Shown: positions 8,254 to 29,954, numbered from the stretch's first letter. The stretch is DNA of 39,272 nt from an uncultured Candidatus Saccharibacteria bacterium (GCA_964494235.1 CAZBQV010000001.1:1-39272); one strand, 5' to 3'. The notes: generated from the sequence alone by a model not told the origin. Numbers and translations are program-made.

Positions 8254-8260
8254 GTCAGAC

Positions 8261-8266
8261 AGTATA
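8261..8266 (-). promoter_or_regulatory. -10-like TATACT, 7 nt upstream of the ATG at 8253 (leaderless geometry)
   Basis: The minus strand reads GACGTATACT-GTCTGAC-ATG. There is no Shine-Dalgarno. It lies just downstream of the gatB terminator. Confidence 0.4.
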
Positions 8267-8283
8267 CGTCATGAGATACGAAA

Positions 8284-8314
8284 AAAGGATATGCGCGCGC
8301 TGTGCATATCCTTT
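8284..8314 (-). terminator. Rho-independent terminator downstream of gatB
   Basis: 11-bp stem aaaggatatgc / gcatatccttt. On the minus strand it is followed by TTTTTTCG. Confidence 0.65.
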
Positions 8315-8343
8315 CTGTTTTTCCGAAATAACTAGGAAATAGG

Positions 8344-9777
8344 CTATATAATCTTTTTCAGAATGATTGCTTTAACCTCGCTCGGATCAGCAGAACCTCG
8401 TGTCTTCTTCATCAGTTGTCCCACAAGAAATTGCAGCGCCGCCTCCTTGCCCTTTCTATAATCTTCAACAACATTCTGATTCTCACGAAGTACCTCATCC
8501 GTTAGAGTCGCAAGATCAGTACCTGACGCCCCCTGCAAGAGCCCTCTCTCCTCTACAATAATTCGAGGAGAAACAGTTCCAAAAGAGATTTCGTAGAGCA
8601 GGTCTTTTACAACACGCGTCGTAATAACCCCCTCAAGGAAAAGCGCAATGAGTTCAGCAAAGTTGCGTGGCGAGGCCTGCTCAATTGAAGTACCCTCCTT
8701 TGCGATAGCCCCCAACAAGTCAGTCGTGAGGAAATTTACGAGCTTCTTTTTATCGTCAGTAGTTGTAGAGGCGCGCACTGCTTCAAGCTCAGTTATTGCT
8801 TGTTCATAGAACTTACTTGATGACCTGTCAGCAACGAGTATTTCTATAATATTGTTCGGCAAGCCGAGATCAAGAAATTTTGCCCTTATTTTACTTGGTG
8901 TTTCTGGCATTATCTCGTCTAGCCGAGATAATGCCAGAGTAGGTACTTCCTGTGTACTAAATTTTGGAATATCAGGATCAGGAAAATATCGATAGTCATG
9001 TGACGACTCCTTCTTTCGCTGCGATACTGTTTTCAAACCTATTTCGTCCCATCCTCGAGTTTCCTGAATAATAGTCTCCCCCTTTTCGAGCAGATTGATT
9101 TGACGATCGATCTCGTACGCTATGGCAGATTCAACTGAGCGGAAGGAATTGAGGTTTTTAATTTCAACCTTTGTTCCGTATGAATCAGACGCGCTGACAG
9201 AAATATTGACCTCAACTCTCATTTCACCGCGCTCCATATTTGCATCCGAGACTCCGAGCGTCCGAAGCAAGAGCTGAAGCTCGCGCGCAAAATTTCCTGC
9301 TGTCTTTGCGTCATGAATGACCGGTTCCGTGACCAACTCCATGAGCGGCACTCCTGCGCGATTATAGTCGATCAAACTTCCGGCAGCTTTGTCATGGACC
9401 GAGCGAGCAGTGTCTTCCTCAAGATGAACCCGAGTAATTGCGACACCTGCAAGGCTTCCCTTCGAGACAAGCGGATATGCAAACTGACTGATCTGATATC
9501 CTTTCGGTATATCGGGGTAGAAATAATTTTTTCTATCGAATTCAGTGAACGTAGCAAGATTCGCTTCAAGCGCCCGACCGACGAGAAGTACGTGCTGAAC
9601 TGCTTGTTCGTTAACCATCGGCAGTGTACCCGGATGGCCCACACAAATGGGACATACGTGGATATTCGGCTCCGAGTCATGTGGGGCATTTTTACACCCA
9701 CAGAACATCTTGGTTTCTGTCCTGAGCTCCGCATGAATCTCAAGACCTATGGTCGGAGTATATGCTTCTTTTTTCAT
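8344..9777 (-). CDS. gatB: Asp-tRNA(Asn)/Glu-tRNA(Gln) amidotransferase subunit B
   Basis: 477 aa. Contains TIGLEIHAELRTETKMFCGCKN...HVCPICVGHPGTLP and a C-terminal GatB/YqeY-type domain. Confidence 0.97.
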   Translation of the reverse strand: MKKEAYTPTIGLEIHAELRTETKMFCGCKNAPHDSEPNIHVCPICVGHPGTLPMVNEQAVQHVLLVGRALEANLATFTEFDRKNYFYPDIPKGYQISQFAYPLVSKGSLAGVAITRVHLEEDTARSVHDKAAGSLIDYNRAGVPLMELVTEPVIHDAKTAGNFARELQLLLRTLGVSDANMERGEMRVEVNISVSASDSYGTKVEIKNLNSFRSVESAIAYEIDRQINLLEKGETIIQETRGWDEIGLKTVSQRKKESSHDYRYFPDPDIPKFSTQEVPTLALSRLDEIMPETPSKIRAKFLDLGLPNNIIEILVADRSSSKFYEQAITELEAVRASTTTDDKKKLVNFLTTDLLGAIAKEGTSIEQASPRNFAELIALFLEGVITTRVVKDLLYEISFGTVSPRIIVEERGLLQGASGTDLATLTDEVLRENQNVVEDYRKGKEAALQFLVGQLMKKTRGSADPSEVKAIILKKII

Positions 9778-11274: not shown

Positions 11275-13809
11275 CTAAGAGACAATCTTCCAGCCTCCCG
11301 ATGCAATGAGTTCTTCGGCCTTTTTGAATTTCATCTCTTTTGTTTCGGTTCCATTTGAAATTGTAACCATGTCGTTGCGGCCAATCTTTGGGGTAGCCTG
11401 AACCGGCTTTTGACTACGTTGTGCTTCAGTACCTTCTCCAGAAGAGGCGCTGCCTCCGATGAGCTGCGCGTTCTTTTGAACCTGACGAAGTTCGCGCTCC
11501 TCGCGCTCGAGCGCTTGCTCGGCAACATTTGGTATAAGCTCGGCAATGCGCATCAAAAGCGCATCATTCATTTCCTTGAAGAGTCGGTTCGCCTCTTTTC
11601 GATACTCAATGAGCGGATCGCGCTGGCCGTACGCACGAAGGTTGACGCTTGAACGCGTGTAATTCATGAGTTCAAGATGTTCAATCCAAAGTATGTCCGT
11701 CACCTGCAAAATAAGACGGCGCATGAGTGGGTGCCATTTCTCTGCCCCGACTTGCGCACGCTTTTCCGTAATCATTGCTTCGCTCTCAGGCATAAACGCA
11801 ACAACCTCGGCAAGCACAAGATCAACCTCGTCGTCAGCTCCCAATAGGAGCTTACGGCGACGCGCATAAATAGCTTGGCGCTGGCGATTGAGTACATCAT
11901 CGTACGCAAGTACGTGCTTACGCGCATCAAAATTGAAGCCCTCAATCTTACGCTGTGCAGATTCGAGCGAGCGCGTAATCACGCCACTTTCAATCGGCTG
12001 ATCTTCCGGAATGCCAAAACGACCCATCATATTCTTCACCACATCAGACGCGAATACGCGCATGAGCGTATCTTCCATTGAGACAAGAAACTGCGTCTCG
12101 CCCGGATCACCCTGTCGTCCTGCGCGACCGCGAAGCTGATCGTCAGTACGGCGCGCTTCATGACGCTCTGTACCGAGCACGAAGAGACCACCGAGCGCAC
12201 GGACTTCGTCAGCCTTTTCCTTCGATACGCCGACGCCGCCAAGCTTGATATCAACACCGCGACCAGCCATGTTGGTCGCAAGGGTCACTTTCCCCTTTTC
12301 GCCCGCGGCTGCGATGATCTCACCTTCTCGCTCGTGATTCTTTGCGTTCAACATCTCGTGCGGAATGCCTGCCTTCACGAGCTCTGCGCTCAACATTTCA
12401 TTTCGCTCAATCGATGCAGTACCGATGAGAATCGGTTGTCCCTTCTCATGAATCTCTTTCACTTTGCGAATGACCGCCTGAAATTTCCCACGCTCCGTCT
12501 GAAACACCAGATCGTTATGATCGATACGCTGTGTTTTGCGATGCGTTGGCACCGGAACGACCTCAAGCTTATATACCGAATAGAATTCTTCCTGCGAGGT
12601 GAGGCCCGTTCCGGTCATACCCGCAAGCTTCTCGTACATGCGGAAATAGTTTTGGAATGTGATTGATGCATAGGTGCGTGACTCGCGTTGAATCGCAACA
12701 CCTTCCTTCGCCTCGATCGCCTGATGAAGACCTTCTGACCAGCGACGGCCCGGCTGCAAACGTCCTGTATGCTCATCGACAATGACAACCTCGTTGTCGC
12801 GTACCACATATTCCTTGTCGCGCGTATAGAGCGCTTTCGCGCGCACGGCCGTCTCAAGATGATGGACATACTTGATGCCGCGATCAGTATAAATATTATC
12901 TATACCAAGCAACTCCTGTGCACGCTCAATGCCAGCATCCGTCAAAGTCGCACTCTTGAGCTTCTCATCAATTGTAAAATGCTCCTCATTATTGAGTTTC
13001 GCCGCAATGCGTGCGAACACTTCGTAGAGGTTCTCAGATTCTTGTGCAGGAGCAGAAATAATAAGCGGCGTGCGTGCCTCATCAATAAGAATAGAGTCTA
13101 TTTCGTCGATAATGGCGAAGTGAGGTGCCCGCTGGCGAAGATTCTCAACATCATACTCGATATTGTCACGCAAATAATCAAACCCAAATTCATTATTCGT
13201 TCCGTAAGTGATATCTGCACGATACGCTTCTGCACGCGTCACTGGTCGCAAAAAATCATAAACGACTCGAAACGAGCCCTCCGCATCGCGTTCTGCGTCT
13301 GCTTCGCGGTGCCCCGCATCATATATATATGAAGCATCATGGTTAATAACACCGACCGTAAGACCAAGAGCAGCGTAAATCTGCCCCATCCATACGGCAT
13401 CACGCCGAGCGAGGTAATCATTGACCGTCACTACATGAACCCCTTTCTCAGTAAGAGCATTTAAGTAGGTCGGGAGCGTACCGACGAGCGTCTTACCTTC
13501 TCCTGTGCGCATCTCGGTGATCTTTCCGCGATGCAAAAGCACGCCACCAACGATCTGTACATCGTAGTGCCGCTCATTGAGTGTACGACGCGCGGCTTCA
13601 CGGACGGTCGCATACGCTTCAGGGAGGAGTTCATCGAGTGATGCGCCATTGAAGATACGCTCTTTAAACGCAGCTGTCTTATTTAAAAGCTCGCTATCGG
13701 AAAGCATTGCGAGGCCCTCCTCAAAAGAAGCGACGACGGGGACAAGCGCCTGGGCAGCCATGAGCTCGCGCTCGTACGACTTGCCAAAGAAACGGTCGAG
13801 AAATGACAT
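11275..13809 (-). CDS. secA: Preprotein translocase ATPase SecA
   Basis: Contains MRTGEGKTLV, DEIDSILIDEARTPLIIS and LATNMAGRGVDIKLGG...RGRAGRQGDPG. I chose the start at ATG 13809 (MSFLDRFFGK). Confidence 0.97.
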   Translation of the reverse strand: MSFLDRFFGKSYERELMAAQALVPVVASFEEGLAMLSDSELLNKTAAFKERIFNGASLDELLPEAYATVREAARRTLNERHYDVQIVGGVLLHRGKITEMRTGEGKTLVGTLPTYLNALTEKGVHVVTVNDYLARRDAVWMGQIYAALGLTVGVINHDASYIYDAGHREADAERDAEGSFRVVYDFLRPVTRAEAYRADITYGTNNEFGFDYLRDNIEYDVENLRQRAPHFAIIDEIDSILIDEARTPLIISAPAQESENLYEVFARIAAKLNNEEHFTIDEKLKSATLTDAGIERAQELLGIDNIYTDRGIKYVHHLETAVRAKALYTRDKEYVVRDNEVVIVDEHTGRLQPGRRWSEGLHQAIEAKEGVAIQRESRTYASITFQNYFRMYEKLAGMTGTGLTSQEEFYSVYKLEVVPVPTHRKTQRIDHNDLVFQTERGKFQAVIRKVKEIHEKGQPILIGTASIERNEMLSAELVKAGIPHEMLNAKNHEREGEIIAAAGEKGKVTLATNMAGRGVDIKLGGVGVSKEKADEVRALGGLFVLGTERHEARRTDDQLRGRAGRQGDPGETQFLVSMEDTLMRVFASDVVKNMMGRFGIPEDQPIESGVITRSLESAQRKIEGFNFDARKHVLAYDDVLNRQRQAIYARRRKLLLGADDEVDLVLAEVVAFMPESEAMITEKRAQVGAEKWHPLMRRLILQVTDILWIEHLELMNYTRSSVNLRAYGQRDPLIEYRKEANRLFKEMNDALLMRIAELIPNVAEQALEREERELRQVQKNAQLIGGSASSGEGTEAQRSQKPVQATPKIGRNDMVTISNGTETKEMKFKKAEELIASGGWKIVS

Positions 13810-13816
13810 GGGCCAC

Positions 13817-13822
13817 AGTATA
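13817..13822 (-). promoter_or_regulatory. Extended -10 (TGGTATACT), 7 nt upstream of the secA ATG
   Basis: The minus strand reads GTGTGGTATACT-GTGGCCC-ATG. It lies directly after the 13862-13891 terminator. Confidence 0.4.
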
Positions 13823-13861
13823 CCACACGGAAAAGAGAGCTTCACCAGGATTCATAACAAA

Positions 13862-13891
13862 CAAAACAGCCTCTGTGACCAGAGGCTGTTT
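13862..13891 (-). terminator. Rho-independent (potentially bidirectional) terminator
   Basis: 13-bp perfect stem aaaacagcctctg / tgac / cagaggctgtttt. On the minus strand it is followed by TTTTGTTTGTT. It sits 15 nt after the stop of the lysine-rich ORF. Confidence 0.75.
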
Positions 13892-13906
13892 TGCTTTTGA
13901 AGCAGA

Positions 13907-14020
13907 TTAACGCTTCTTGCGCTTTGCTGCCTTCTTCTTTGTTGCCTTCTTCTTTGTAGCTTTGCGCTTGGTTGTCTTCTTAGCTGTCTTCTTAGCTGCC
14001 TTTCGCTTTTTTGCTGCCAT
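13907..14020 (-). CDS. 37-aa lysine/alanine-rich highly basic peptide (histone-H1-tail-like)
   Basis: MAAKKRKAAKKTAKKTTKRKATKKKATKKKAAKRKKR read from the ATG at 14020. The stop is followed by a strong terminator. There is no homology evidence, so coding status is unproven. Confidence 0.45.
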   Translation of the reverse strand: MAAKKRKAAKKTAKKTTKRKATKKKATKKKAAKRKKR

Positions 14021-14200
14021 AGTATTTTGTGTAAATTTTTTATTACTTCTTTCGACCGCATTGTTTTCTTTTTGTAATATGCAAAGAAAGAAAACAATTG
14101 CTCTTTCATAATTATCATGCACATGTCATGTGCATACAACGAAATAAAATTTTTTTATGTGGATAACAAAAAAAATTATTTTTAAATATTTTTTAAAAAA

Positions 14201-14241
14201 ATAAATTTGCACTGAGTAAAATTTATTCAGTGCAAATTTAT
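14201..14241 (-). terminator. Rho-independent terminator downstream of murB
   Basis: 15-bp AT-rich stem ataaatttgcactga / 11-nt loop / tcagtgcaaatttat. On the minus strand it is followed by a T-run. It starts 9 nt after the murB stop. Confidence 0.6.
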
Positions 14242-14249
14242 TTTTGTCA

Positions 14250-15296
14250 TTACGACACCATCGTCACCTCCCATTCAATAGGAATTCCCGTTGCATCAAA
14301 AACTTTTTTTTGTATAGCGCGCGCAAATACTTCAACATCATGCGCTGTCGCACCACCATGGTTTACAAGAACAAGTGCCTGATTCTCGTACGTTCCAACA
14401 TTTCCAATTTGATACCCACGAAGTGCGAGCACACGATCGAGTATCCACCCGAGAGACACCTTAACTCCGCCCTGTGCTTGCGCGTGCCCTGGCAATTCCG
14501 GGTACCGGACACATAGTCTTTTGTATTGCTCTAATGAAATAACTGGATTCTTAAAAAACGATCCCGCCGTGCCTGTCGTATGCCAATCAGGAAACTTTCG
14601 AGCGCGTATTTCTTGAACAGCCTGTCGGATATCATAAATCCCGACTTCTCCATCACGCGCACTCTTCCACACTTCAAGATCGCGGTATTGTAATTGTGGA
14701 CGCGCATACTTTGAGAGCTTGTATGTCACTCGCGTAATCACAAATCGCTTTCCTTCCGTACTCTTAAAGAAAGAGTCGCGATACTCAAACAAACACTCTT
14801 CGTTTGAGAAAGACCGCATGACGCCCCGATCAACATCGTATGCCTCGACCGACACAATGAGCTGACTCATCTCCACGCCATACGCGCCAACATTTTGCAC
14901 CGGTGTCGCACCGACGTATCCCGGAATGCTCGAGAGATTCTCGAGACCCCACCATCCATGTGAGACTGCATACGCAACGACATCGTCAAACACTTCACCT
15001 GCTCCCGCATGCACAAATACCGCCTCGCCTTGCTCATCGTATTCAAATCCTTTAATGAGAAGGTGTACGACAAGTCCTTTTACGCCCCGATCAGACACCA
15101 ATACATTTGATCCCCCTCCAAGCACAGTTACAGGAAAAGCACCTGCATTCGCCCACTCGATCGCTGCCACCAGCTGCTCCTCATTCTCTACAGTAACAAA
15201 ATATTCTGCAGGTCCACCGATATGAAATGTCGTGTATGAAGAAAGCGGCACGTTCGTTCGCATTTCATGCTCTATGTATTCTCGTGGTGTCTGCAT
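14250..15296 (-). CDS. murB: UDP-N-acetylenolpyruvoylglucosamine reductase
   Basis: Contains PLSSYTTFHIGGPAEYF, LGGGSNVLVSD, GLENLSSIPGYVGATPVQNVGAYG and GSFFKNP. I chose the start at ATG 15296 (MQTPREY), not the track start at 15455. Confidence 0.9.
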   Translation of the reverse strand: MQTPREYIEHEMRTNVPLSSYTTFHIGGPAEYFVTVENEEQLVAAIEWANAGAFPVTVLGGGSNVLVSDRGVKGLVVHLLIKGFEYDEQGEAVFVHAGAGEVFDDVVAYAVSHGWWGLENLSSIPGYVGATPVQNVGAYGVEMSQLIVSVEAYDVDRGVMRSFSNEECLFEYRDSFFKSTEGKRFVITRVTYKLSKYARPQLQYRDLEVWKSARDGEVGIYDIRQAVQEIRARKFPDWHTTGTAGSFFKNPVISLEQYKRLCVRYPELPGHAQAQGGVKVSLGWILDRVLALRGYQIGNVGTYENQALVLVNHGGATAHDVEVFARAIQKKVFDATGIPIEWEVTMVS

Positions 15297-15305
15297 ACAC
15301 GACAC

Positions 15306-15311
15306 ACTATA
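15306..15311 (-). promoter_or_regulatory. -10-like TATAGT, 9 nt upstream of the murB ATG 15296
   Basis: The minus strand reads CGGTATAGT-GTGTCGTGT-ATG. Confidence 0.35.
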
Positions 15312-15460
15312 CCGCGCATTTTCTGTTATATAAAAACCAGAACGCTCCTCTTGATGTATGGCCAGCGGGCGCGAGCTCCAAAATAAGTGAAAGTCTATAT
15401 TGTGAGTGCTGCCGCTAGCCGTACATAAAGATGAACGACAACTCAAGTATACCATTCATT

Positions 15461-15489
15461 AAAAACGCAAAAGCCCCCACCCCGGGGAC
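15461..15489 (-). terminator. Rho-independent terminator after the Wzy_C/TPR gene
   Basis: The minus strand reads GTCCCC-GGGGT-GGGGGC (6 bp including one G-U pair) followed by TTTTGCGTTTTT. Confidence 0.5.
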
Positions 15490-15537
15490 CTTCACGTAGA
15501 CTTTCATGTTGGTGCTGCTTCCAGCACTCACATCTGC

Positions 15538-15565
15538 ATTATACCAACTGCATATATCAGCACAA
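15538..15565 (-). promoter_or_regulatory. Sigma-70-like promoter (TTGTGC, 16 nt spacer, TGGTATAAT) with no ORF behind it
   Basis: The minus strand reads TTGTGC TGATATATGCAGTTGG TATAAT. It starts right after the stop at 15570 and is followed within about 70 nt by the 15461-15489 terminator. Confidence 0.35.
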
Positions 15566-15569
15566 GATG

Positions 15570-17798
15570 TTACGCTTCGATTTCTATATTTCCAGTTTGA
15601 ATTGCTTCAATAAACTGCTCGCCTTGCGCCTTAAAACTTGGAATATCTTCTATCGCCTCGCGAAGTGTCCGAATAGCTGCTGCCGCATCACCCGCCTGAT
15701 ATTCAGAGGCTGCTTTTGAAACCCGCAATTGAGGGTCATTCGGATTCTTTTGGATACGCTTCCCTAAGAGCTCAGCCACCTTTGCATATTCACTGAGTTC
15801 GTAATACACCTGAACAATTGCGTCATGATTCCAATAGATTTCATCGTACGGAGCCGCTGAGAGTTCTTGGAGAAGCTTTTCATCTCCCGTATAAATGGCC
15901 GCCGCCATGTAGTATGCCCGCGCATCTCTATACGCCGGATCAAGGTCAAATGCTTCTTTAAAGATCGCGCGTGCTTTCTCGTAATCTTCTTGTGCAAGGT
16001 ATACTGACCCGATATCAAACATGATTCGCTGCTTCTTTGGAGACAGCGTCTGAGCCTGCTCAAGTTGCTCAAGTGCTTTTTCATGTTGACCGAGTGTTCG
16101 ATAGAACGTGCCAAAAAATGTGTACGTACGCGCAACATTTGGTTCTTCAACTATCTGTTTTGCAAGTTCCATTTCAGCGAGATCTGCAAATGATTGTTTT
16201 GTCTCAACTGAAACCTGAGCATCAGACAAGATGCGCTGCATACTGAGAGCGAGGTGCTCGCGTATTTCTTGATTTGCAAACGAGTTTCTATCAAGCGCTT
16301 GCTTAAACTCCGCAAGACCGCTTCTAAGGAATACTTCTCTTTGCTGAGGACTTATTGTCGGATTATCTTTTGCTGTGTTGATAAAGGAAAGTCCCTGGAT
16401 CATGTCCTTCGCCGCTGCTATATGAGGAATATTGAGGTAGTACACGCCGACACAGAGGATAACTGCTGCTACAGGCGCAGCGATACGATTGATCATCATT
16501 CCATCTATACGAATCCGCGACAGCGCGGGGATCGGACTCCCCACTCGCGTATGTATGAATACGAGCATCGTCCCAAAGAAGAAGTAGCTGATGAGATTAT
16601 CAAACACAAATATATTGTGGATCGCATAACCTGCAAGCAGACCGAGCAAGATTCCGCGCTCCAGTACAGAAAACGTCTCATCTTTTTTAAGGAGTGGGCG
16701 GACAAAGAGATAGTAGAGTGCCGCAAGCCAAATCGAAAGATATGCAGCAAGGCCGAGTACACCGCCGGCAACCATCCAGTCGAGAATAATATTATGCACG
16801 CGATCAAACCACGGCTCCTGCGCGTAGAGCGACGGGCGGTAATATTTGTTGAATACATAGTCGAAATTCCCCTGTCCCCATCCGAGAATCGGTCGCTCCG
16901 CAACACCTTCCAGCGCAATACTCCAGATAGTGAAGCGTGTCGCACCAGCCTCAAGTGAAATCGAAGCAACGCGACTCAAGATCGGGCTCTCACGCACAAA
17001 CGCTGTATCGCGAGCCATGTAAAATGCTGCGCTGATTGCCACAACAAGCACGAGTCCCAGGAGCGCAGCTTTGCGTAACAATACGTTTCCCTTTGAAAAA
17101 AGGGCGATGTAGAGCCCGGTGACTGCAAGACCACCAACCAGACCGAGGATGGTACCACGTGTCGCAGTCTGCACAAGGAGGAACATAAAGACGAGCGCAA
17201 GTCCGCCGTAGAGGATACGGAGCTGCATGATGTTCGTACGCGTCATCATGAAGAGCGCGATGAATGCATGAAAGAGCATATACACCGCCATATAGATCGC
17301 ATTACCGAGCGTCGCGTCAATACGTAAGCCTCCCTGCATAATATCGACACGGCCCAAGAGCTGAAATCCCGCGTAGAGCGAAACAACAGAGGCAGCTGCG
17401 AGCGATGCATTGAAAAACCAGTCCCAAAGCTTTTCTGTCGTCAAAACCGCAGCCGCCACAACAAAATACGCGAGGAGATGTACGAGCGTAATCCACCCTT
17501 CCATGCGTTCGAAGTTACTCCAGAAGCTCCGCACTGGTGATTCACCAAAGACATTTGCAACAAGCATGATACTCACAAAACCGCCGAACGCCGCGAGTAT
17601 CCATGAGAATTGTGGACGATATCGCGCATCATAGAGCGCGAGCAGTACCCACGCTGCGAAGATGATTTCAACAATGATTCTGAATGCAAAATTCTTTCCC
17701 GTGATGTATGGAAAGAACAAGCTTCCGGTCACCAATAAAGGTAAAAATGGAAGGATAAACACTCCACCCAACACCACGTATCGTAATGTGTCTCGCAT
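15570..17798 (-). CDS. Polytopic O-antigen-ligase/polymerase-like (Wzy_C) membrane protein fused to a C-terminal TPR domain
   Basis: 742 aa. About 450 aa of multi-TM sequence includes LLVQTATRGTILGLVGG. About 250 aa of TPR-like repeats follows (ARTYTFFGTFYRTLGQHEKALEQLEQAQTLSP..., YEKARAIFKEAFDLDPAY...). Confidence 0.8.
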   Translation of the reverse strand: MRDTLRYVVLGGVFILPFLPLLVTGSLFFPYITGKNFAFRIIVEIIFAAWVLLALYDARYRPQFSWILAAFGGFVSIMLVANVFGESPVRSFWSNFERMEGWITLVHLLAYFVVAAAVLTTEKLWDWFFNASLAAASVVSLYAGFQLLGRVDIMQGGLRIDATLGNAIYMAVYMLFHAFIALFMMTRTNIMQLRILYGGLALVFMFLLVQTATRGTILGLVGGLAVTGLYIALFSKGNVLLRKAALLGLVLVVAISAAFYMARDTAFVRESPILSRVASISLEAGATRFTIWSIALEGVAERPILGWGQGNFDYVFNKYYRPSLYAQEPWFDRVHNIILDWMVAGGVLGLAAYLSIWLAALYYLFVRPLLKKDETFSVLERGILLGLLAGYAIHNIFVFDNLISYFFFGTMLVFIHTRVGSPIPALSRIRIDGMMINRIAAPVAAVILCVGVYYLNIPHIAAAKDMIQGLSFINTAKDNPTISPQQREVFLRSGLAEFKQALDRNSFANQEIREHLALSMQRILSDAQVSVETKQSFADLAEMELAKQIVEEPNVARTYTFFGTFYRTLGQHEKALEQLEQAQTLSPKKQRIMFDIGSVYLAQEDYEKARAIFKEAFDLDPAYRDARAYYMAAAIYTGDEKLLQELSAAPYDEIYWNHDAIVQVYYELSEYAKVAELLGKRIQKNPNDPQLRVSKAASEYQAGDAAAAIRTLREAIEDIPSFKAQGEQFIEAIQTGNIEIEA

Positions 17799-19869: not shown

Positions 19870-20529
19870 TTATGCAGGAACGTCGCGCCACAAACCGCGA
19901 ATCTTGAGGAATGCACTGAAGATCTCATAGAGAACTCCTTCGCCTCCCTTGGCAGCTGTGACACAACACGAAGCAGCAATCGCTTCTTCACACGAGTCAG
20001 CGGGTGCAATAGCGATACCACCCGCTTCGCGCACAGCACTGAGTGTCTCAGCGTCCTGAATGCCGTCGCCGACAAACAGAATCTCTCCGAGTGCACACCG
20101 AGCCGTCTGCTTTATCCTCGTGAGCTTATCCTTTTCCCCAAGGATGGGTACGGCGCCGAGCGCGAGCGCTCGGTCGTGTACAACGGGAGAATTTCTCCCG
20201 CTGATAAAATACACGGAGAGACCATTTTCCCTCAGGTATTCCACCACCTTCCCATCGCGAGTATCGAATCCATACCCTTCAGCGATAGGCCTTCCAACCT
20301 TCGCCGAGAAAAGTTCGACCCTATTCACGACAGGATTCCCCAGTGCGTCGAGTGGCACCAACGGAGTCCGCAGAAATCCGTCATGCCGCTCGAAACCGAT
20401 AACGCCGCCGCCCGCTCCCAGAAGCTCAAAAATGACAACGGGTTTTTGATGGGTCATAACGCCGTCGACATCGAGCCATACTTCCTTGATATTGGAAGCT
20501 CGCTCGAGCAGAAGTTCATGCAGATTCAT
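19870..20529 (-). CDS. kdsC: HAD-IIIA phosphatase, KdsC/YrbI family, with a ~45-aa insertion
   Basis: 219 aa. Contains LDVDGVMT, FDTRDG, YFISGRNSPVV, GEKDK, FVGDGIQD and TAAKGGEGVLYEIF. ATGA start/stop overlap with the upstream kdsB-like gene. Confidence 0.7.
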   Translation of the reverse strand: MNLHELLLERASNIKEVWLDVDGVMTHQKPVVIFELLGAGGGVIGFERHDGFLRTPLVPLDALGNPVVNRVELFSAKVGRPIAEGYGFDTRDGKVVEYLRENGLSVYFISGRNSPVVHDRALALGAVPILGEKDKLTRIKQTARCALGEILFVGDGIQDAETLSAVREAGGIAIAPADSCEEAIAASCCVTAAKGGEGVLYEIFSAFLKIRGLWRDVPA

Positions 20530-21302
20530 GTCAGCTCCCCTTTCTCAATTCGCTCCGCGACGATCACACGCACCTGCTCAAGCTCCTCTGGGGTGTTTAC
20601 CCCAAGATTTTGATAGGTGCCTTTTACGATACGCATCCGATATCCATGCTCGAGTATTCGCATCTGTTCAACACCTTCCCGCAGCTCCAATGGCCCCTGC
20701 GGAAGCGTTAAAAACATATACAAAAAATCTCGACGGAGTGCCATCGCACCGGTGATGTGATACACATCAACAGCTGCGTGCGAGTTATACGGATGCGGGA
20801 CAAACGCTCTGGAAAAGCATAGTACATTGTTTTTAAGATCGGTCAAAACCTTCACGAGACTCGGTTCAGCAATCATCTTTTCATCCTCGATTAAATCCCC
20901 AACTCCCGCGACTTGCAGATCGGGATCTTCGAGCAAAAGCTCAACACACGCATCAATTGCAGTTGCCGAGTAGAGCGGCTCATCTCCCCAAACATTTACC
21001 ACGATGTCAGGGACGAAATCAGAAAACTGCTTGACTGCTGCCGCTGTTCGATCAGTCCCCGTCGGCAATTCAGACGGTGTCATAATCGCACGGACACCAA
21101 GATTTGTTGCAATCTCTGCAATACGTTCAGAATCAGTAGCCACGACAAGCGCATCGAGATTTTTTGCGCGCTGTGTTCGTTCAATAGTTCTCTGTATCAG
21201 AGGTTTCCCACAAATATCCAAAATCATTTTCTCTGGCACGCGCGTCGAGCCAATTCGAGCAGGAATAACGCCGAGCACCTTTGGTTTTCTAGATGTAGAC
21301 AT
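20526..21302 (-). CDS. kdsB: KdsB-family cytidylyltransferase (CMP-Kdo synthetase-like)
   Basis: 258 aa. Contains GVIPARIGSTRVPEKMILDICGKPLIQRTIER, VVATDSERIAEIA, TGTDRTAAAV and VVNVWGDEPL. Confidence 0.8.
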   Translation of the reverse strand: MSTSRKPKVLGVIPARIGSTRVPEKMILDICGKPLIQRTIERTQRAKNLDALVVATDSERIAEIATNLGVRAIMTPSELPTGTDRTAAAVKQFSDFVPDIVVNVWGDEPLYSATAIDACVELLLEDPDLQVAGVGDLIEDEKMIAEPSLVKVLTDLKNNVLCFSRAFVPHPYNSHAAVDVYHITGAMALRRDFLYMFLTLPQGPLELREGVEQMRILEHGYRMRIVKGTYQNLGVNTPEELEQVRVIVAERIEKGELT

Positions 21303-22124: not shown

Positions 22125-24248
22125 TTAGGTCATGTTTTTAAACTGACGGTAATCAATGCTGCTGACGGCGTCAGCCTGCTCCCGATACGCAAGTATCTTA
22201 TCGACAAGTGCGCGGCTCGAAAGATCCATTAACCCCTTCGTGTGTTCTATTGATGCGGCAAGATGGGATGTTAGGAATACATTCGGTAATGTTCGCAGCG
22301 TATCATCCTTCGAAAGCGGTTCGCTATCAAATACATCGATACAGGCAAAAATATCCCCTCTCTTAAGCCGTTTAATAAGCGCTTCTGTATCGACGAGTCC
22401 TGCCCGACCAGAGTTTATAAACACAGTCCCCGAACGAAGAGCTCCAATTTCCTGAGCTCCAAACGATCGCTCAGTACGCGGCGAAAGACCTCGCTGTATC
22501 GATACAACGTCGCATCGCAGTACTTCATCAAGAGTACTTGATACGACGCCGAGCGTCTGCGCAGTCTCGGTATCCATATACTCTGAGTGTACATATACCG
22601 TGCAGCCAAACGCTCGAAAAAGCGGGATAGTCTTTTTGGTAATTTCTCCAAAACCAAGTATCCCGACTGATCGACCAGCAAGCATTCGAGCAGTAGCCCT
22701 ATTTGGTCGAGAAACTGGAGCGATGATCGGTCGTATGGACGAAATATACGGTTTCAGGAATCTGAGAAGAGAATTTTTGGCAAAAGAACGTATCTTCTCT
22801 CTTACCATATCTTGAAATCGCGGCACCGAAAATTCCCAACCACCTTTCCGAAGCACCTCGTGTGACACACTTGCGCGCCGTAAACCAACGAGCGCTTGCA
22901 TGACAATAAACTCAGCAACAGCGTCAGCATACACATCAGCAGTATTGATAATCGCCAAGCCTCGGTCAATCGCTGCTTCACCGCCCCACTTCTTGATGGA
23001 CGCCCCTAATACACCGAGAATGGCCACCCCTGGTAGCAAATCGAGTAGCTCGTGGTCAAGTGGAATTGCGCTCGGCCCACCTGTCAAAACTGCGCCAATT
23101 GTACGTCGCTCAGTTTCAGACATCTTTTCTAGATCTTCGCGATATACAATACGGACATGTTCCCCAAGACGAGGAAGCTCTGCATGAAGAGCACGCGGAT
23201 TGAGTACGAGCACGGATGAAAAGCGACCCTCAACAATCTGTTGACGTATAGGAATCTCTGAATCAATCTGCCCCACTGGATTTTTTGTTTCAATTGACGA
23301 CCAATCGATGGTGCCCATGTGCCCGCGCTCAATAAGTTCAACAAGGTGCAGTGCGGATATTGTTCTATCAAGTGAGTGCAGTGGTTCGTCACCTTCATGT
23401 ATTGCATTCAGAAAAGCAGCGAATTCAGCGTAAATGCCACCAGTGACGTCGTCGTCAGTTTTTACTTCATCTTTATCCTCAGCATCTCGGCTTATATGAA
23501 GCGACTGTCCCTCTACAGCGTACGAGACCCCATATCCATGAAACGCATATCGTTCCAGACGAGAGCCGGCAGAGTTATTTGCAGAAAATACAGCATGCCG
23601 ATCGCCCCATACTATCAGTGCGGAAAAATTCTCGCGCGGATCATTTGATGTTCCATTGTAAGCAGTATAGAGCGCTGTTGGGCGTTCACCCATAATAAAA
23701 CAAAGGGTATCAAGTGCATGAATTGCACTGACGCCGAGCCACGTCTCCATGCCAAAGGGGACTAACGTACCTGCGTTTGGTTTATTGAAGATCGCCTCAG
23801 CTGATTGTATTGAAGATTCACGAAGATTCTTCTTTATTTCCAGGATATGTTTTTGAAATCTTCGATTATATCCTGCCGCCGCAATACGTCCCTGATGTTT
23901 TGCAAGAGCTGAAAGCTCCTTTACCTGCTCCGTATTCTTTGCGGGCGGCTTTTCGACAAATAGATGTTTGCCCGAACGCAGTGTATTGAGACCCTCTCGA
24001 TAATGAACATCTGCAGGAGCAAAAATGCATACTGCATCAATATCAGTACGCCCAATCAAGTCTTCGGCACGATGGGTCACATACGGAATGTCAAATGTAG
24101 ACGCTGCAGCGTGAGCCGCATCGATATTGATATCGCAAATTCCTATAATGATGCACTGTCCCTCTTCTCGAAGACGGGCAAGCGCAGGAAGATGACGCTT
24201 CACTGTCATTTTTCCCGCACCAATTATGCCAATTCTTACAGAATTCAT
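22125..24248 (-). CDS. Two-domain oxidoreductase fusion: N-terminal Gfo/Idh/MocA and C-terminal D-isomer-specific 2-hydroxyacid dehydrogenase
   Basis: 707 aa. N-terminal part: VRIGIIGAGKMTVKRHLPAL...HLFVEKPPA...AAGYNRRF. C-terminal part: GRSVGILGFGEITKKTIPLFRAFGCTVYVHS...VFINSGRAGLVDTEALIKRLKRGDIFACIDVFDSEP...LTSHLA. Confidence 0.8.
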   Translation of the reverse strand: MNSVRIGIIGAGKMTVKRHLPALARLREEGQCIIIGICDINIDAAHAAASTFDIPYVTHRAEDLIGRTDIDAVCIFAPADVHYREGLNTLRSGKHLFVEKPPAKNTEQVKELSALAKHQGRIAAAGYNRRFQKHILEIKKNLRESSIQSAEAIFNKPNAGTLVPFGMETWLGVSAIHALDTLCFIMGERPTALYTAYNGTSNDPRENFSALIVWGDRHAVFSANNSAGSRLERYAFHGYGVSYAVEGQSLHISRDAEDKDEVKTDDDVTGGIYAEFAAFLNAIHEGDEPLHSLDRTISALHLVELIERGHMGTIDWSSIETKNPVGQIDSEIPIRQQIVEGRFSSVLVLNPRALHAELPRLGEHVRIVYREDLEKMSETERRTIGAVLTGGPSAIPLDHELLDLLPGVAILGVLGASIKKWGGEAAIDRGLAIINTADVYADAVAEFIVMQALVGLRRASVSHEVLRKGGWEFSVPRFQDMVREKIRSFAKNSLLRFLKPYISSIRPIIAPVSRPNRATARMLAGRSVGILGFGEITKKTIPLFRAFGCTVYVHSEYMDTETAQTLGVVSSTLDEVLRCDVVSIQRGLSPRTERSFGAQEIGALRSGTVFINSGRAGLVDTEALIKRLKRGDIFACIDVFDSEPLSKDDTLRTLPNVFLTSHLAASIEHTKGLMDLSSRALVDKILAYREQADAVSSIDYRQFKNMT

Positions 24249-24253
24249 ATTCC

Positions 24254-24988
24254 TTACGGTGAAAATAATTTGCTATCCCACTTGGGAATGTTTCCAATCT
24301 CGCTCAGATTATCATCAGTTGTAACGACATTCTTCCGCAAAAAAGGCGGCCAGTGCTTCATTGTCCCACGATCTGCAATGGCTGTCTTCTGCATAAACTC
24401 TCCAACATTATTAAAATGTGCGCCCCCCTGGAGACCAATTCCTGCAGCAATGATGTACTCCGCGCGCGGAAAACGCTTCACCGCGTACATGATTGCATCA
24501 AGACCTGTTGAGTGGGAAAGCCAATCCATATCTCCATGAAACAGAATGTCCGGAATAACCTTCGTAACAAAATGACGCAAACCACGAACTCGAATACGTT
24601 CATACATAACCAGAAGAACTCTCCATCCAAGAACGTGCTTCATGAATTGATGACGTTCACGAATTGTATAAACGGTGATCTGTGCGTCTGCAAGCTTGAG
24701 GGTCTCTCGTATAAACGCAACGATATCAACGCCGCCATCTCCAAAGACAATGATCTCGTCAGGGGCTCCCTTTTTGAACGACTCTTGGATATGGGGGTGC
24801 TTCAAAAGTTCTACTCCGGGCACTAGCCCTACGGTACGTGACCCATACCTACGCCGATACTCAAGCGCCAATTCCACCGCACCATTTGCAGCAAGTACTA
24901 CCGGTGCTTCGATCTCAGGAAACTGCGCTTCGGGTTTTGAACCGAGCACGACGACCGTCTGAGTTTCTACACCACGCGAGGAGTCCAT
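24254..24988 (-). CDS. Hypothetical protein; weak resemblance to CMP-sugar (sialyl/Kdo-type) transferase or MptE/DUF115-like fold
   Basis: 244-aa ORF packed in the operon, with 5-nt and 9-nt gaps to its neighbours. Contains VVVLGSKPE...VVLAANGA and LSHSTGLDAIMYAVKRFPRAEYIIAAGIGLQGGAHFN. The functional call is speculative. Confidence 0.55.
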   Translation of the reverse strand: MDSSRGVETQTVVVLGSKPEAQFPEIEAPVVLAANGAVELALEYRRRYGSRTVGLVPGVELLKHPHIQESFKKGAPDEIIVFGDGGVDIVAFIRETLKLADAQITVYTIRERHQFMKHVLGWRVLLVMYERIRVRGLRHFVTKVIPDILFHGDMDWLSHSTGLDAIMYAVKRFPRAEYIIAAGIGLQGGAHFNNVGEFMQKTAIADRGTMKHWPPFLRKNVVTTDDNLSEIGNIPKWDSKLFSP

Positions 24989-24997
24989 ACACAGCCA

Positions 24998-26131
24998 CTA
25001 TAAAATGGCATATAGGGTACGTCCAGCATCAGCTTTCGTAAAGCGACGAGGATTATTGCCTGCGCGTTCAATGGACATGGCCTCGACAAGACCTTCAATA
25101 TGTTCCTTCTCTACGCCAAAGTCGCTCAATCTGAGAGAAAGATCGATGTCTTTTATAAGCTTTTCATAAACGCACACCGCTTCGTCGATACTCTGTGACC
25201 CCAAAAAAGTTTTAATGTTAGCGAGCACACTTTGTACATACGCAACACCACGAGTATCCATCACGTCATCAGAAGACACACTGTCATTAAACCTCAACAG
25301 TTGTGGCAATGTCAGTGACACCGCCTGACCATGAGGGATACCAAACTGAACGGTGAGAGCATATGACATGGCATGACATGCCGTTGTCTTCGAAATATTG
25401 ATGGCTCTCCCCGCAAGATGTGCGGCGCGCGCAAGTGCGCTCCGAGAGGAACGATCTGGATCGAGAACCGCTTTCCTAAGATTACTCAAAATCAGCTCAA
25501 GAGCTTCTGCAGCATATTCTTTTGACTCGTCCGTCGAGTGAATAGACCACATACTTTCAATAGCCTGACAGAGCGCATCAACTCCCGAAAGGGCAGTCTG
25601 CCGCGGGGAGAGAGAGTGCGTAAGCGCAGAATCAACAATCGCATAGTCTGGCATCATATGCGCCTGCGCAAGTGAATATTTTTTCGGACCAATATACACC
25701 GCAGCAAAATGAGTTGCCTCTGCGCCTGTTCCTGCAGTTGTCGGTACCGCAACGACCATTACTCCTTTCTCTGTGAGCGGTGCTTCTCCTTGTATGTACA
25801 CAGCAGGATTCTCATCATGAACCGCAAGAATGGCAATTGATTTTGCAATGTCGATCGCGCTTCCACCACCGATCGCAAGGACCAGATCCGGACTTGTTTC
25901 TCGCATCATTGCAATTCCTTTTTCAATATCTTCGAGCTTTGGATTTGGTGAAAAATTATCAAATATACACACCTCGTGTGCGTGCAAAAGTTGATCACAT
26001 ATTTCCTTCGCGCCTGAGTGGACGAAAGACTCTTTCCCCGTTACAAGCAACACCCGCTTTGGGTTATGTTTAGAAATTATTTCAGAAAGACTTTCTGAAA
26101 ATGGTTTATCAAGATATGCAATCTGCTCCAT
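24998..26131 (-). CDS. Iron-containing (group III) alcohol dehydrogenase, candidate phosphonoacetaldehyde reductase (PhpC-like)
   Basis: 377 aa. Contains LAIGGGSAIDIAKSIA and metal-site histidines in context (ACHAMSYAL...PHGQAV). It lies directly downstream of ppd. Confidence 0.8.
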   Translation of the reverse strand: MEQIAYLDKPFSESLSEIISKHNPKRVLLVTGKESFVHSGAKEICDQLLHAHEVCIFDNFSPNPKLEDIEKGIAMMRETSPDLVLAIGGGSAIDIAKSIAILAVHDENPAVYIQGEAPLTEKGVMVVAVPTTAGTGAEATHFAAVYIGPKKYSLAQAHMMPDYAIVDSALTHSLSPRQTALSGVDALCQAIESMWSIHSTDESKEYAAEALELILSNLRKAVLDPDRSSRSALARAAHLAGRAINISKTTACHAMSYALTVQFGIPHGQAVSLTLPQLLRFNDSVSSDDVMDTRGVAYVQSVLANIKTFLGSQSIDEAVCVYEKLIKDIDLSLRLSDFGVEKEHIEGLVEAMSIERAGNNPRRFTKADAGRTLYAIL

Positions 26132-26160: not shown

Positions 26161-27285
26161 CTACGATTTCAAAAACTTTTCAAAATCCTGCTTATTTTCG
26201 ACAGGAGAACGTGTTGGCCTTCCGAGATCGTCTCGAGACCCACCAGAAATACGTACTTCAATGAACACCGGTCCTTCTTCATGTTCACTACCTTTAAAAA
26301 TGGACTGGATCCCGTCTCGATTGTCCACGCGCAGTACTTTTTTATACCCACAGGCGTGCGCAACTTCACACAAATCTGTTTTGAACGCAACGGTAGCCTG
26401 TCCTCCGACCGATTCGTGCATGCCATTATTGAACACAACATGTATGAAATTCTTTGGCGCACGCGCGCCGATTGTCGCCATACCACCAAGATGCATGAGC
26501 GCCGCGCCATCTCCATCAAAACAGTACACGCGCTTTGATGTAGCCTGTGCGGCACCAAGCGCAATTTGCGAAGCATGGCCCATTGATCCAACAGTAAGAA
26601 AATCACGCATATGGCCTTCATTCCGCTGCTTTCGTAGTTCAAATAACTCACGAGAAAGTTTCCCTGTCGTTGATACCACCACTGAATCTACACCCACCAA
26701 AGGCAAAATCTCTGCAACCGCTTGTTCACGAGTGAGCCTGTATGTTTCTTTTTTCGCGTGCACAGATGCGTACGCACTAAACGTATCCTTCCGGACAACT
26801 AGTGCATACGGCATATTTTTTTCTCGCGCAGTTTTAATTGCCGTAGAGACTTCTGCCGATACCTCCTCGAGAGAATTTGAGAGAACGACATATGGAATCT
26901 CAAGCGCCTCCAGAAGTCTTGGGGTAATCTTCCCCATCTTGATGTGCTGCGGTTCATCCTTTACGTCTGGCTCCCCGCGCCACCCAACAAGCAGGAGCAT
27001 CGGAATCTGGTACACTTCAGCATCTGCAAGCGAGACGAGTGGATTTACCGCATTCCCCAATCCCGAATTCTGCATATACACAAGCGGTACGCCTCCAGTC
27101 GCAAGATGATGCCCTGCAGCGATTGCGACTGCAGCCCCCTCATTGACTGCAATGAGATGGTCCTGCTCCCCTCCATGGTCGTCAACATACGCACAAAAAT
27201 CCTTGAGCAAAGAATCGGGCACCCCCGTAAAAAAACCAACACTTTGCGTTTTCAGGAGGTTAAAAAAATCTGCTGGATTAACCAT
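26161..27285 (-). CDS. ppd: Phosphonopyruvate decarboxylase (TPP-dependent)
   Basis: Contains FFTGVPDSLLKDF and GSMGHASQIALGAA. TPP motif GDG-x25-NN (GDGAALMHLGGMATIGARAPKNFIHVVFNN). I chose the start at ATG 27285 (MVNPADFF), 4 nt after the pepM stop, rather than the TTG at 27306. Confidence 0.9.
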   Translation of the reverse strand: MVNPADFFNLLKTQSVGFFTGVPDSLLKDFCAYVDDHGGEQDHLIAVNEGAAVAIAAGHHLATGGVPLVYMQNSGLGNAVNPLVSLADAEVYQIPMLLLVGWRGEPDVKDEPQHIKMGKITPRLLEALEIPYVVLSNSLEEVSAEVSTAIKTAREKNMPYALVVRKDTFSAYASVHAKKETYRLTREQAVAEILPLVGVDSVVVSTTGKLSRELFELRKQRNEGHMRDFLTVGSMGHASQIALGAAQATSKRVYCFDGDGAALMHLGGMATIGARAPKNFIHVVFNNGMHESVGGQATVAFKTDLCEVAHACGYKKVLRVDNRDGIQSIFKGSEHEEGPVFIEVRISGGSRDDLGRPTRSPVENKQDFEKFLKS

Positions 27286-27289
27286 ACGA

Positions 27290-28630
27290 TTACTTTCCAC
27301 CCTCAATAAGGGTCAGGATGTCTTTGATCGGCATACAGTATTCGTCGTCCACTTCCTGGGCGCGACTGTTTTTTAGAATTGACTCTGCAGTTCGCATCAT
27401 TGCAGGATATGCACTTCGAAGGAGCTGATTGGCATAAATCACCATGTTTACACCTGCCTTCTCGAGTTCTTTTTCTGTTACAGACGCATACGTTGAAGGG
27501 ACGGCAACAAGCGGCGTATCGCCGCGAAACTTCTTGAATTCTTTACAGAAATCAAAAATCTCCTTCGGACTCTTCTCTTTGCTGTGAATCATAATCGCTC
27601 CCGCCCCTGCCTCAATATACGCTCGCGCGCGCGCAAGCGCGTCCTCAAGCCCCTTTCCGAGAATGAGGCTTTCGATGCGCGCGATAATCATAAAGTCATC
27701 CGTTACCCGCGCCCGATTCCCCGTCTTTATCTTTTCACAAAAATTTTCAATTGAATCTTGCTCTTGCTCAACCTCCGTACCAAAGAGAGAATTTTTCTTG
27801 AGACCGTGCTTGTCCTCAATGATAATCGCTGAAACACCGAGTCGTTCAAGTGAACGAACAGTATATGGGAAATGTTCAAGGAGACCTCCTGTGTCACCGT
27901 CATACACAATCGGTTTCGTCGTAACCTCGAGAATATCAGAGACTGTACCTAATCTCGACGAGACATCAACAAGTTCGATATCAGGCTTCCCTTTATTGGT
28001 CGAATCAGTGAGGCTTGAGAGCCACATAAAATCAAACTCTTTCCGGATATTCTTTTCTTTAATGAATACATGCTCTGCAATCAGTGCAGAGAGTCCGCTG
28101 TGTGCTTCAATTCCGCGAATAAGCGGGCGCGCTTTGAGGAGCCGTCGCAAGCGCTCAAGTCTAATTTTCGGCGTGGTCCCAACCTCCTTTAAACTCTTGT
28201 TAAGCTGCGTCGAGGAAATACCCTCCGTATATGCAGGCTCAATAAGCTTTCCTCCCCACTTTTTTAAAACCCCAATAACTTGCTTGCGCGTTTTCTGCTG
28301 AACTCCTGTTTTCCAATCATCACCGTGAACGACATAGTCGGGTTTGAACTTCTCAAGATTTGGTCGGTAATCAAGTGTCTCCTGCGGCACAACGCGTGCG
28401 ACACCTTTTATATTCTCTATTACCGCCCTTCGTTGCTCAAAACTCATGTACGGCAACCGCTTATAGCTCGCAATCGCAGCATCAGTCAGGAGCCCGACCG
28501 TAACTACGCCATACTTTGTACCTTCCTTGATAATCTTGAGATGGCCCGGATGTACGAGATCCGCACTCATAGCGATATAGACAGTTTTCTTACCGCGCCC
28601 CTTTTTAGGAGAAACTGATTTTTTTGCCAT
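27290..28630 (-). CDS. pepM: Fusion protein: HxGH-type cytidylyltransferase (TagD-like) and phosphoenolpyruvate mutase
   Basis: N-terminal domain: [12 protein letters not shown] and [10 protein letters not shown], which match the HxGH and RTEGISTS-type cytidylyltransferase signatures. C-terminal domain: [22 protein letters not shown], and [13 protein letters not shown], which matches the PepM-specific EDK-x5-NS motif. I chose the start at ATG 28630 (MAKKSV). Confidence 0.9.
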
Positions 28631-28638
28631 ATCGTCCA

Positions 28639-28644
28639 AGTATA
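28639..28644 (-). promoter_or_regulatory. -10-like TATACT, 8 nt upstream of the ATG at 28630 (head of the phosphonate operon)
   Basis: The minus strand reads CTATGTATACT-TGGACGAT-ATGGCAAAAAAA. The alternative TTG start at 28639 would lie inside this hexamer. Confidence 0.4.
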
Positions 28645-28745
28645 CATAGGAAAGGTAGATTTTCTAGCCTCTCGCCAACCCCTTAATCCTTCGTACGTTA
28701 CGACTCAAGCTTTCCACGCTATACTACCCTAAAATTACACGATAT

Positions 28746-29954
28746 ATGCCTCCATTCTTCAGAAAAATAAAAACCCCATTAATCCTCCTCTTGAGCTGGA
28801 TGATGTATCCCCTCTCCTGGCTTTCACCGCGAAGTAATCAGATTTGGATCTTTGTTGGATGGCACAAAAGCGCAGATCGAGAGATATTTGCCGACAATTC
28901 AAAATATCTTTTTTTATATACCACCGAACATCATAAAGAAATTCGGTCAATTTGGATTGCTGAGGACGACAATATGCGTGATCAACTTCGAGCACACGGG
29001 TATGAGAGCTATACAGTGACTTCGTGGCTCGGACTCTATTACTCACTTCGAGCCGGATACACAATCATCGATGCGAACATGCGCCTCTTTAATTGGCGCG
29101 CGAGCGGACGAAGTAAAGTCATTCAACTCTGGCACGCAGATGGTATCAAAGGACTCGAGCTCGGGAGTTCATGGAAACTCTCAAAGTTCCGAGAAATCAT
29201 CATCTCGCCCGGGCTCTTCCGACGCATATACTTCTTTATCGCATCTTCACCATACATTGCAACAAATTTTATTTGCCCAAGCTTTGATGTGCCAAGAGAA
29301 CGTGTTCGTATCACCGGTCTCCCTCGCTACGACATATTCTTCAAACACATCCGTAACGCTGATATAGATATACATCAAGACCTCGATGAGGCACTGCAAA
29401 AAGTACGAGCCATGCACCCTTCACGTATTCTGCTCTATGCGCCAACATTTCGCCGAGGCAAAGATGCAGATTCGCCCCTTGCACAACTTGATCTCTCGAA
29501 GCTCAATACTTTTCTTTCAGAAAGAAACGATTTTCTTTTCATATCTCTCCATCCAAAATTCTCAACAACCGAATGGCTCCCGAAAGAGACCTTCTCACAC
29601 ATATCGTTCGTTAATCCCGATTTTGACAAATACCCTCTTCTCCCAAGGTTTGATCTCGTCATCACTGATTACTCATCGCTCTGTCTTGAATTCCTCCTTC
29701 TTGATAAACCAAGTATATTTTTTGTCTATGATTTTGATGAATACCGAAAAGACCCCGGCATTCCTGAAGATTTCTGGAATCTAGTACCCGGTCCACGACC
29801 ACGCACTTTTGATGACCTCCTCAGGGCACTTACTGAAACATCAGCAACTCGCTCTGAGGAACGCAAAAAGGCTCGAGAAATTCTCTTCATATTCAAGCCA
29901 GGAGAGGCTTCAAAGAATGTTGCGCATGAGATTCTCAAAGACAGCGCAGCGTAG
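28746..29954 (+). CDS. CDP-glycerol glycerophosphotransferase family protein (TagB/TagF-like)
   Basis: 402 aa. Contains FADNSKYLFLY, IQLWHADGIKG, LLYAPTFRRGKD and VITDYSSLCLEFLLLDKPSIFFVYDFDEY. Confidence 0.85.
   Translation: MPPFFRKIKTPLILLLSWMMYPLSWLSPRSNQIWIFVGWHKSADREIFADNSKYLFLYTTEHHKEIRSIWIAEDDNMRDQLRAHGYESYTVTSWLGLYYSLRAGYTIIDANMRLFNWRASGRSKVIQLWHADGIKGLELGSSWKLSKFREIIISPGLFRRIYFFIASSPYIATNFICPSFDVPRERVRITGLPRYDIFFKHIRNADIDIHQDLDEALQKVRAMHPSRILLYAPTFRRGKDADSPLAQLDLSKLNTFLSERNDFLFISLHPKFSTTEWLPKETFSHISFVNPDFDKYPLLPRFDLVITDYSSLCLEFLLLDKPSIFFVYDFDEYRKDPGIPEDFWNLVPGPRPRTFDDLLRALTETSATRSEERKKAREILFIFKPGEASKNVAHEILKDSAA

Follow-up and report, generated by a model that had tools for sequence, protein, structure and literature searches.

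A Fom1-type cytidylyltransferase/PEP mutase fusion, very probably a source of CMP-2-hydroxyethylphosphonate, in a bacterial surface-glycan locus

Among described systems, the gene considered here lies closest to Fom1 of the fosfomycin pathway of Streptomyces wedmorensis, whose N-terminal cytidylyltransferase (CyTase) domain transfers CMP from CTP to 2-hydroxyethylphosphonate (HEP), giving CMP-HEP (Cho et al. 2017, as cited in PMC6697681 and PMC9088020). Rice et al. (2019, Nat Commun 10:3698, PMC6697681) made this domain the exemplar of a class of Ppm enzymes fused to PF01467; among 1485 RefSeq Ppm enzymes carrying EDKx5NS, the motif that those authors define as Ppm specific, 33% were fused to PF12804 and 23.6% to PF01467, and a class in which both were fused to Ppm made up 2.9%. 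PntC represents the LicC-like PF12804 AEP cytidylyltransferases, which are often Ppm-fused, as in Treponema denticola Tde1415, and PhpF, a phosphonoformate cytidylyltransferase, is a PF01467 protein (PMC6697681). The searchable text of Rice et al. assigns neither substrates nor transferases to the PF01467-Ppm class. PF01467-Ppm fusions are also recorded in AEP-transaminase neighbourhoods (GCF 743; PMC8942020), and HEP phosphonoglycans have been described in Glycomyces and Stackebrandtia (Yu et al. 2014, as cited in PMC8942020). The premise of the initial annotation of this locus, that characterised phosphonate cytidylyltransferases are of the LicC/MobA-like and not the HxGH fold, was thus mistaken, since the Fom1 CyTase (PDB 5x3d) and PhpF both belong to PF01467. 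Our literature search on CMP-AEP, CMP-HEP and PntC yielded little beyond Rice 2019 and Li & Horsman 2022, and we found no paper there that relates PEP mutase (pepM) to the Candidate Phyla Radiation (CPR) or to Patescibacteria.

The window, by which we mean the whole stretch of 39,272 nucleotides analysed, comes from a reduced-genome bacterium that its genome size, best named hits and synteny mark as probably CPR and Kaiserbacteria-like, and contains one gene of this kind, with the following features (motifs verified by a translation check).

27290..28630, minus strand: gene for a Fom1-type fusion (predicted 2-HEP cytidylyltransferase / PEP mutase), 446 aa from the ATG
28181..28600, minus strand: N-terminal CyTase domain, PF01467 HxGH fold, aa 11-150
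28541..28552, minus strand: HPGH (HxGH) nucleotide-binding motif, aa 27-30
28208..28228, minus strand: TEGISST, the second signature of the fold, aa 135-141 (TPGISST in Fom1)
27299..28150, minus strand: C-terminal PEP mutase domain, aa 161-444
27788..27817, minus strand: Ppm-specific, PepM-diagnostic EDKx5NS motif, aa 272-281

The reading frame is free of stops from 28639 (TTG) or 28630 (ATG) down to 27290; the in-frame TTG lies three codons 5' of the ATG, which is likely to be the start codon and gives a protein identical to the called protein P0002 (446 aa). A TATACT hexamer is found 8 nt 5' of the ATG, and the divergent intergenic region (28631-28745, 106-115 nt) is without an obvious Shine-Dalgarno sequence, in line with leaderless-like starts elsewhere in the window. 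Pfam recognises CTP_transf_like (PF01467, E 1.3e-12) and PEP_mutase (PF13714, E 4.9e-54) in the protein and nothing else, the NCBIfam PEP-mutase equivalog TIGR02320 is passed with 394.9 bits against a cut-off of 319.6, and a PDB sequence search aligns the mutase domain with the PepM structure 5unc (E 6.9e-45). The in-frame fusion of an HxGH cytidylyltransferase to an intact PepM, which had been read from the HPGH and TEGISST motifs, is therefore confirmed, as is the proposal that C-P bond formation and nucleotide activation are united in one polypeptide, both domains being encoded in a single open reading frame.

The resemblance of the N-terminal domain to that of Fom1 is close. Its best PDB sequence match is 5x3d_A (E 1.6e-57, residues 14-153), with 63.6% identity over 140 ungapped residues; the Foldseek entry title gives 5x3d as the HEP-CMP-bound form of the CyTase domain of S. 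wedmorensis Fom1. An AlphaFold2 model of the fusion built on a 43-sequence alignment (pLDDT 85.7, pTM 0.84) was compared with known structures by Foldseek, and the modelled N-domain superimposes on 5x3d with a TM score of 0.96 and an rmsd of 1.0 Å, the C-domain on the PepM structures 5unc and 1pym with TM scores of 0.78-0.79. H27, G29 and H30 do not vary in any of the 43 aligned family members. A degenerate N-domain with misplaced HxGH histidines, which the initial annotation had named as a ground for abandoning its reading, is rejected on this fit and on the invariance of the histidines. Fom1 and the present protein have in common an N-terminal PF01467 CyTase domain and a C-terminal PepM, the HxGH, (T)xGISST and EDKx5NS motifs, and the partner enzymes phosphonopyruvate decarboxylase (Ppd) and an iron-containing alcohol dehydrogenase (Fe-ADH). 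PntC likewise combines Ppm with a domain for CMP activation of a phosphonate, for tailoring of the cell surface, but its fold is MobA-like and unrelated to HxGH, it acts preferentially on AEP, and it is usually partnered by LicD-type transferases; PF12804 is absent from the fusion described here, and the genome's single PF12804-like match is a KdsB-like gene at 20526-21302.

The genes that follow the fusion, and those at the end of the same operon, are listed in the order of transcription.

26161..27285, minus strand: Ppd, phosphonopyruvate decarboxylase, Fom2-like (TIGR03297; TPP_enzyme_N and TPP_enzyme_C)
24998..26131, minus strand: Fe-ADH, candidate phosphonoacetaldehyde reductase (PhpC/FomC-like) that would yield 2-HEP (Fe-ADH, ADH_Fe_C)
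24254-24988, minus strand: 244-aa orphan ORF, same operon, no Pfam or NCBIfam match
22125-24248, minus strand: Gfo/Idh/MocA and D-2-hydroxyacid dehydrogenase fusion, 707 aa, same operon
19870-21302, minus strand: KdsB-like CMP-sugar synthetase and KdsC-like HAD phosphatase, end of the operon

We take Ppd and Fe-ADH to be the equivalents of Fom2 and FomC of the fosfomycin pathway. The Ppd start codon lies 4 nt past the stop of the fusion gene, and the protein scores 512 bits against the equivalog TIGR03297 (cut-off 312.5). The best NCBIfam match of Fe-ADH is the phosphonate-specific model Phn_Fe-ADH (TIGR03405), at 210.6 bits, below the cut-off of 423.7, and this shortfall calls for some caution in reading the product as HEP. 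The presence of these two genes directly downstream bears out the expectation that the intermediate steps are encoded separately from the first and the last. The cassette lies in a surface-glycan locus: the 20 kb around it encode five GT4 glycosyltransferases, several SAM methyltransferases, a Wzx flippase, a Wzy/O-antigen-ligase-TPR protein, the KdsB-like CMP-sugar synthetase, which passes an NCBIfam subfamily model, and the KdsC-like phosphatase. The operon also encodes an FkbM methyltransferase.

By homology with characterised enzymes, the C-terminal mutase would convert phosphoenolpyruvate to phosphonopyruvate, and the translationally coupled Ppd would carry this on to phosphonoacetaldehyde and so pull the unfavourable equilibrium forward; Fe-ADH would then reduce the aldehyde to HEP, and the N-terminal HxGH cytidylyltransferase would join HEP and CTP to give CMP-HEP and PPi. 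We suggest from the gene context that CMP-HEP serves as the activated donor for decoration of the surface glycan specified by the surrounding GT4, methyltransferase, Wzx and Wzy genes, and that transfer is most likely the task of an adjoining TagF-like enzyme (see below). A role for the gene as a Fom1-type bifunctional enzyme making CMP-HEP for glycan decoration is, in our judgement, highly probable. The dehydrogenase fusion, the FkbM methyltransferase and the 244-aa orphan could modify HEP before or after its activation, and the double dehydrogenase and the orphan might act on either the phosphonate or the CMP-sugar branch. Both of the latter are kept in a Kaiserbacteria cluster (L016), as proteins of 715 aa and 244 aa.

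The fusion is a typical representative of the known Fom1-type class and adds another case to the PF01467-fused Ppm enzymes of Rice et al., from which its architecture does not differ. At least 8000 clusters (90% identity) match it at E <= 1e-20, and the best 120 of these carry both Pfam domains, which argues that the fusion is not a product of frameshift or misassembly. An assembly or frameshift artefact was accordingly rejected, the same layout being present in every homologue among the matches listed, and the observation, far beyond chance, is confirmed. Some JGI homologues already bear the title [quoted passage not shown] Named sources among the matches listed include Kaiserbacteria, Paceibacterota, Nomurabacteria, Ignavibacteria, WOR-3, Marinimicrobia and Salinivirgaceae; genome contigs extend this range to Syntrophomonadaceae, Brevinema, Saccharibacteria, Erysipelotrichales, Ruminococcus, Roseburia, Desulfobacteraceae and Gastranaerophilales. 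The triad of fusion, Ppd and Fe-ADH is present in 11 of the 14 fusion loci taken from genome contigs, a set drawn from several phyla, and another five contigs of other lineages have it as well. The domain-architecture survey proposed in the initial annotation had already been published (Rice et al. 2019), and our own search agrees with it. The surmise that the fusion might be recurrent yet unstudied holds in its first half, given its occurrence in other phyla, and fails in its second, given its place in that survey. Within its own phylum the cassette appears to be a patchy accessory trait, because a sample of 300 of its genomes, whose sizes of 0.5-1.4 Mb fit Patescibacteria, contained only three others with a PepM match, one of which had the full fusion (62% identity).

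Several loci depart from the common layout. In Candidatus Kaiserbacteria (L012, JACRFK010000003.1), a stand-alone PepM of 309 aa at 7995-8924 is 65% identical to the C-domain of the window's protein; it starts within the conserved interdomain linker (GTTPNQRLKQMRRLL), has Ppd as the next gene and has no CyTase domain upstream, a state that is either the result of loss of the CyTase domain or the ancestral, unfused condition. In three metagenome-assembled genomes of Ruminococcus and Lachnospiraceae (L007, L008 and L011), about 250 residues precede the HxGH domain in an open frame of about 680-700 aa, which fits a triple fusion of LicC-like, HxGH and PepM domains, the "both" class of the Rice et al. 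survey. The gene order in these three loci is fusion, Fe-ADH and Ppd, with a TagF-like gene next in L007 and L008.

The initial annotation left the substrate of the CyTase domain as an open question. It is not really open, since the N-domain is 63.6% identical to the Fom1 CyTase, which has been assayed and crystallised and acts on HEP, and the substrate is almost certainly 2-HEP. The fold by itself does not fix the substrate, as AEPT-type and PnAla-type neighbourhoods likewise contain PF01467-Ppm fusions. The comparison with other fusions is given by pathway context (N-domain identity to the window's protein).

Loci with Ppd and Fe-ADH: 56-76%
Fom1 CyTase: 63.6%
Triple LicC-like/HxGH/PepM fusions (Ruminococcus, Lachnospiraceae): 41-47%
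Roseburia and Pseudobutyrivibrio loci (LicD, PalB-like aminotransferase, LicC-like transferase; no Ppd): 36%

The PepM domains of the Roseburia and Pseudobutyrivibrio loci are still 65% identical to that of the window. K57, R58, G109 and Q111 are among the positions that are invariant in the HEP-context group and in Fom1 and that the window's protein keeps; all four are replaced in both of the loci with a phosphonoalanine (PnAla) context. Since N-domain identity follows pathway context and so does the pattern at these four positions, the fused HxGH domain appears to have diversified with its substrate, and we infer that the window's N-domain belongs to the HEP-specific group. As a separate observation, the locus of Roseburia lenta (L009, 3722-9293) and L010 place the PF01467-PepM fusion with LicD, a PalB-like aspartate aminotransferase and a LicC-like NTP transferase, together with an Asn-synthase-like gene and an adjoining flagellin gene, and have no Ppd or Fe-ADH, which suggests a different substrate for those fusions, perhaps one derived from phosphonoalanine.

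The alternative that survives best is activation of some other phosphonate, such as 2-AEP, phosphonoacetate or an oxidised or methylated derivative of HEP. The diversity of neighbourhoods in which PF01467-Ppm fusions are found speaks for it, as do PhpF, a PF01467 enzyme that activates phosphonoformate (PMC6697681), and the presence in the operon of the 707-aa double dehydrogenase and the FkbM methyltransferase. Nevertheless, among the window ORFs that were compared with Pfam there is no aminotransferase and no aldehyde dehydrogenase, and in both overall identity and the four diagnostic residues the N-domain sides with Fom1 and the Ppd/Fe-ADH fusions and not with the PnAla-context proteins, so that we consider another phosphonate improbable.

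Activation of HEP has also to be weighed against a role in ordinary teichoic acid metabolism, because a second gene of interest stands directly upstream of the fusion.

28746..29954, plus strand: TagF-like (Glyphos_transf) transferase, candidate CMP-HEP phosphonyl transferase (PF04464, E 1.3e-50)

This gene is transcribed divergently from the fusion, 106 bp away, and its protein matches the PDB structures of TarL (8va1, 3.6e-19), Bcs3, Cps3D and TagF. If the N-domain were a true TagD, it would turn glycerol-3-phosphate into CDP-glycerol for this neighbour, so that the two formed a pair of the conventional teichoic-acid type, and the attached PepM would be incidental. Such a reading gains from the PF01467 Rossmann-like fold with HxGH that the domain shares with TagD/TarD, from the TagF-family gene at so short a distance on the opposite strand and from the content of the genome (616 kb in 61 contigs and 85% complete, so that absences are provisional), which has one PepM, one PF01467 domain and one PF04464 gene, all at the fusion locus, and hence no stand-alone TagD and no other PF01467 domain to act as one. 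It is countered by the distance in sequence: the domain obtains 46 bits against the TagD equivalog TIGR01518 (cut-off 165.4), and TagD structures match it in the PDB search only at E values of 1e-7 to 3e-8, as against 1.6e-57 for the Fom1 CyTase. TagD, moreover, is not fused to PepM, whereas this domain is, and its association with Ppd and Fe-ADH is conserved in different phyla; the TagF-like genes of Bacteroidota and Ruminococcus loci lie within the HEP-cassette operon itself. We therefore regard a true TagD as very improbable, and the label "TagD-type" of the initial annotation is apt for the fold and wrong for the equivalog family.

That the cassette supplies the opening steps of a fosfomycin-like antibiotic pathway, with CMP-HEP a transient for Fom3-type methylation, is scarcely credible: its first three genes match Fom1, Ppd and Fe-ADH in domain content, but the glycan-cluster setting, in which Wzx, Wzy, several GT4 enzymes and methyltransferases are encoded, and the small size of the host genome (616 kb) tell against it, and such a pathway is made unlikely by the lack of any match in the genome, provisional at 85% completeness, to PF02310 (the B12-binding domain, marker of the B12-radical SAM methyltransferase Fom3) or PF04167 (DUF402, marker of the hydrolase FomD; PMC9088020). 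The Fom1 system and the present one differ in their hosts, a tiny-genome, probably CPR bacterium here and an actinomycete in the case of Fom1, in the Fom3 and FomD markers that this genome lacks and in the surface-glycan setting, where CMP-HEP, in the reading that we prefer, is predicted to be the donor for end use and not a transient intermediate.

The architecture, the CyTase fold, the 2-HEP substrate and the wide distribution of the class have all been published, and annotation pipelines already name homologues accordingly; the present gene adds one example, that of a reduced-genome, probably CPR bacterium investing in a C-P compound for its surface glycan. The worthwhile question beyond the fusion is which enzyme moves HEP from CMP-HEP to the envelope, and the conserved TagF-like neighbour is a candidate. 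Its recurrence beside the cassette, together with the want of any other PF01467 enzyme to make CDP-glycerol, points to this role. Of the 16 HEP-context loci inspected, 7, from several phyla, have a TagF-like gene next to the cassette; such a gene accompanies the cassette in Patescibacteria, Bacteroidota (Salinivirgaceae), Ruminococcus and one unassigned contig, and those of Salinivirgaceae and Ruminococcus lie immediately downstream on the cassette's own strand. A near-syntenic cluster in Kaiserbacteria (GCA_001781095.1) includes the divergent TagF-like gene, the 244-aa orphan and the Gfo/Idh/MocA-2-hydroxyacid dehydrogenase fusion. The family is too divergent for simple searches, tblastn of the TagF-like protein on related loci (E 1e-5) giving a match in L015 only; iterative jackhmmer on six-frame ORFs revealed TagF-like neighbours in L007, L008, L016/17, L018, L028 and L029, for which the positions are as follows.

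L007 and L008, about 11563-12939
L016, 8736-9953
L018, 14229-16160
L028, 11541-12794
L029, 11481-12758

Whether this TagF-family enzyme is the missing CMP-HEP-dependent phosphonyl transferase, with CMP-HEP taking the place of CDP-glycerol, seems to us evenly balanced, and our literature search found no published test of HEP transfer from CMP-HEP by a TagF-like enzyme. Were it so, the product would be a glycan-O-P(O)(O-)-CH2CH2OH monoester, and the free hydroxyl of HEP could even permit a teichoic-acid-like poly(HEP) chain. In the Bacteroidota-type contigs L028 and L029, the TagF-like gene is followed by genes for very large membrane proteins with a YidC/60KD_IMP-like region (12766-16461 and 12758-15409, respectively), that of L028 having in addition a sulfatase/alkaline-phosphatase-fold domain, and a sulfatase-fold protein occupies the corresponding position in the WOR-3 locus (L027).
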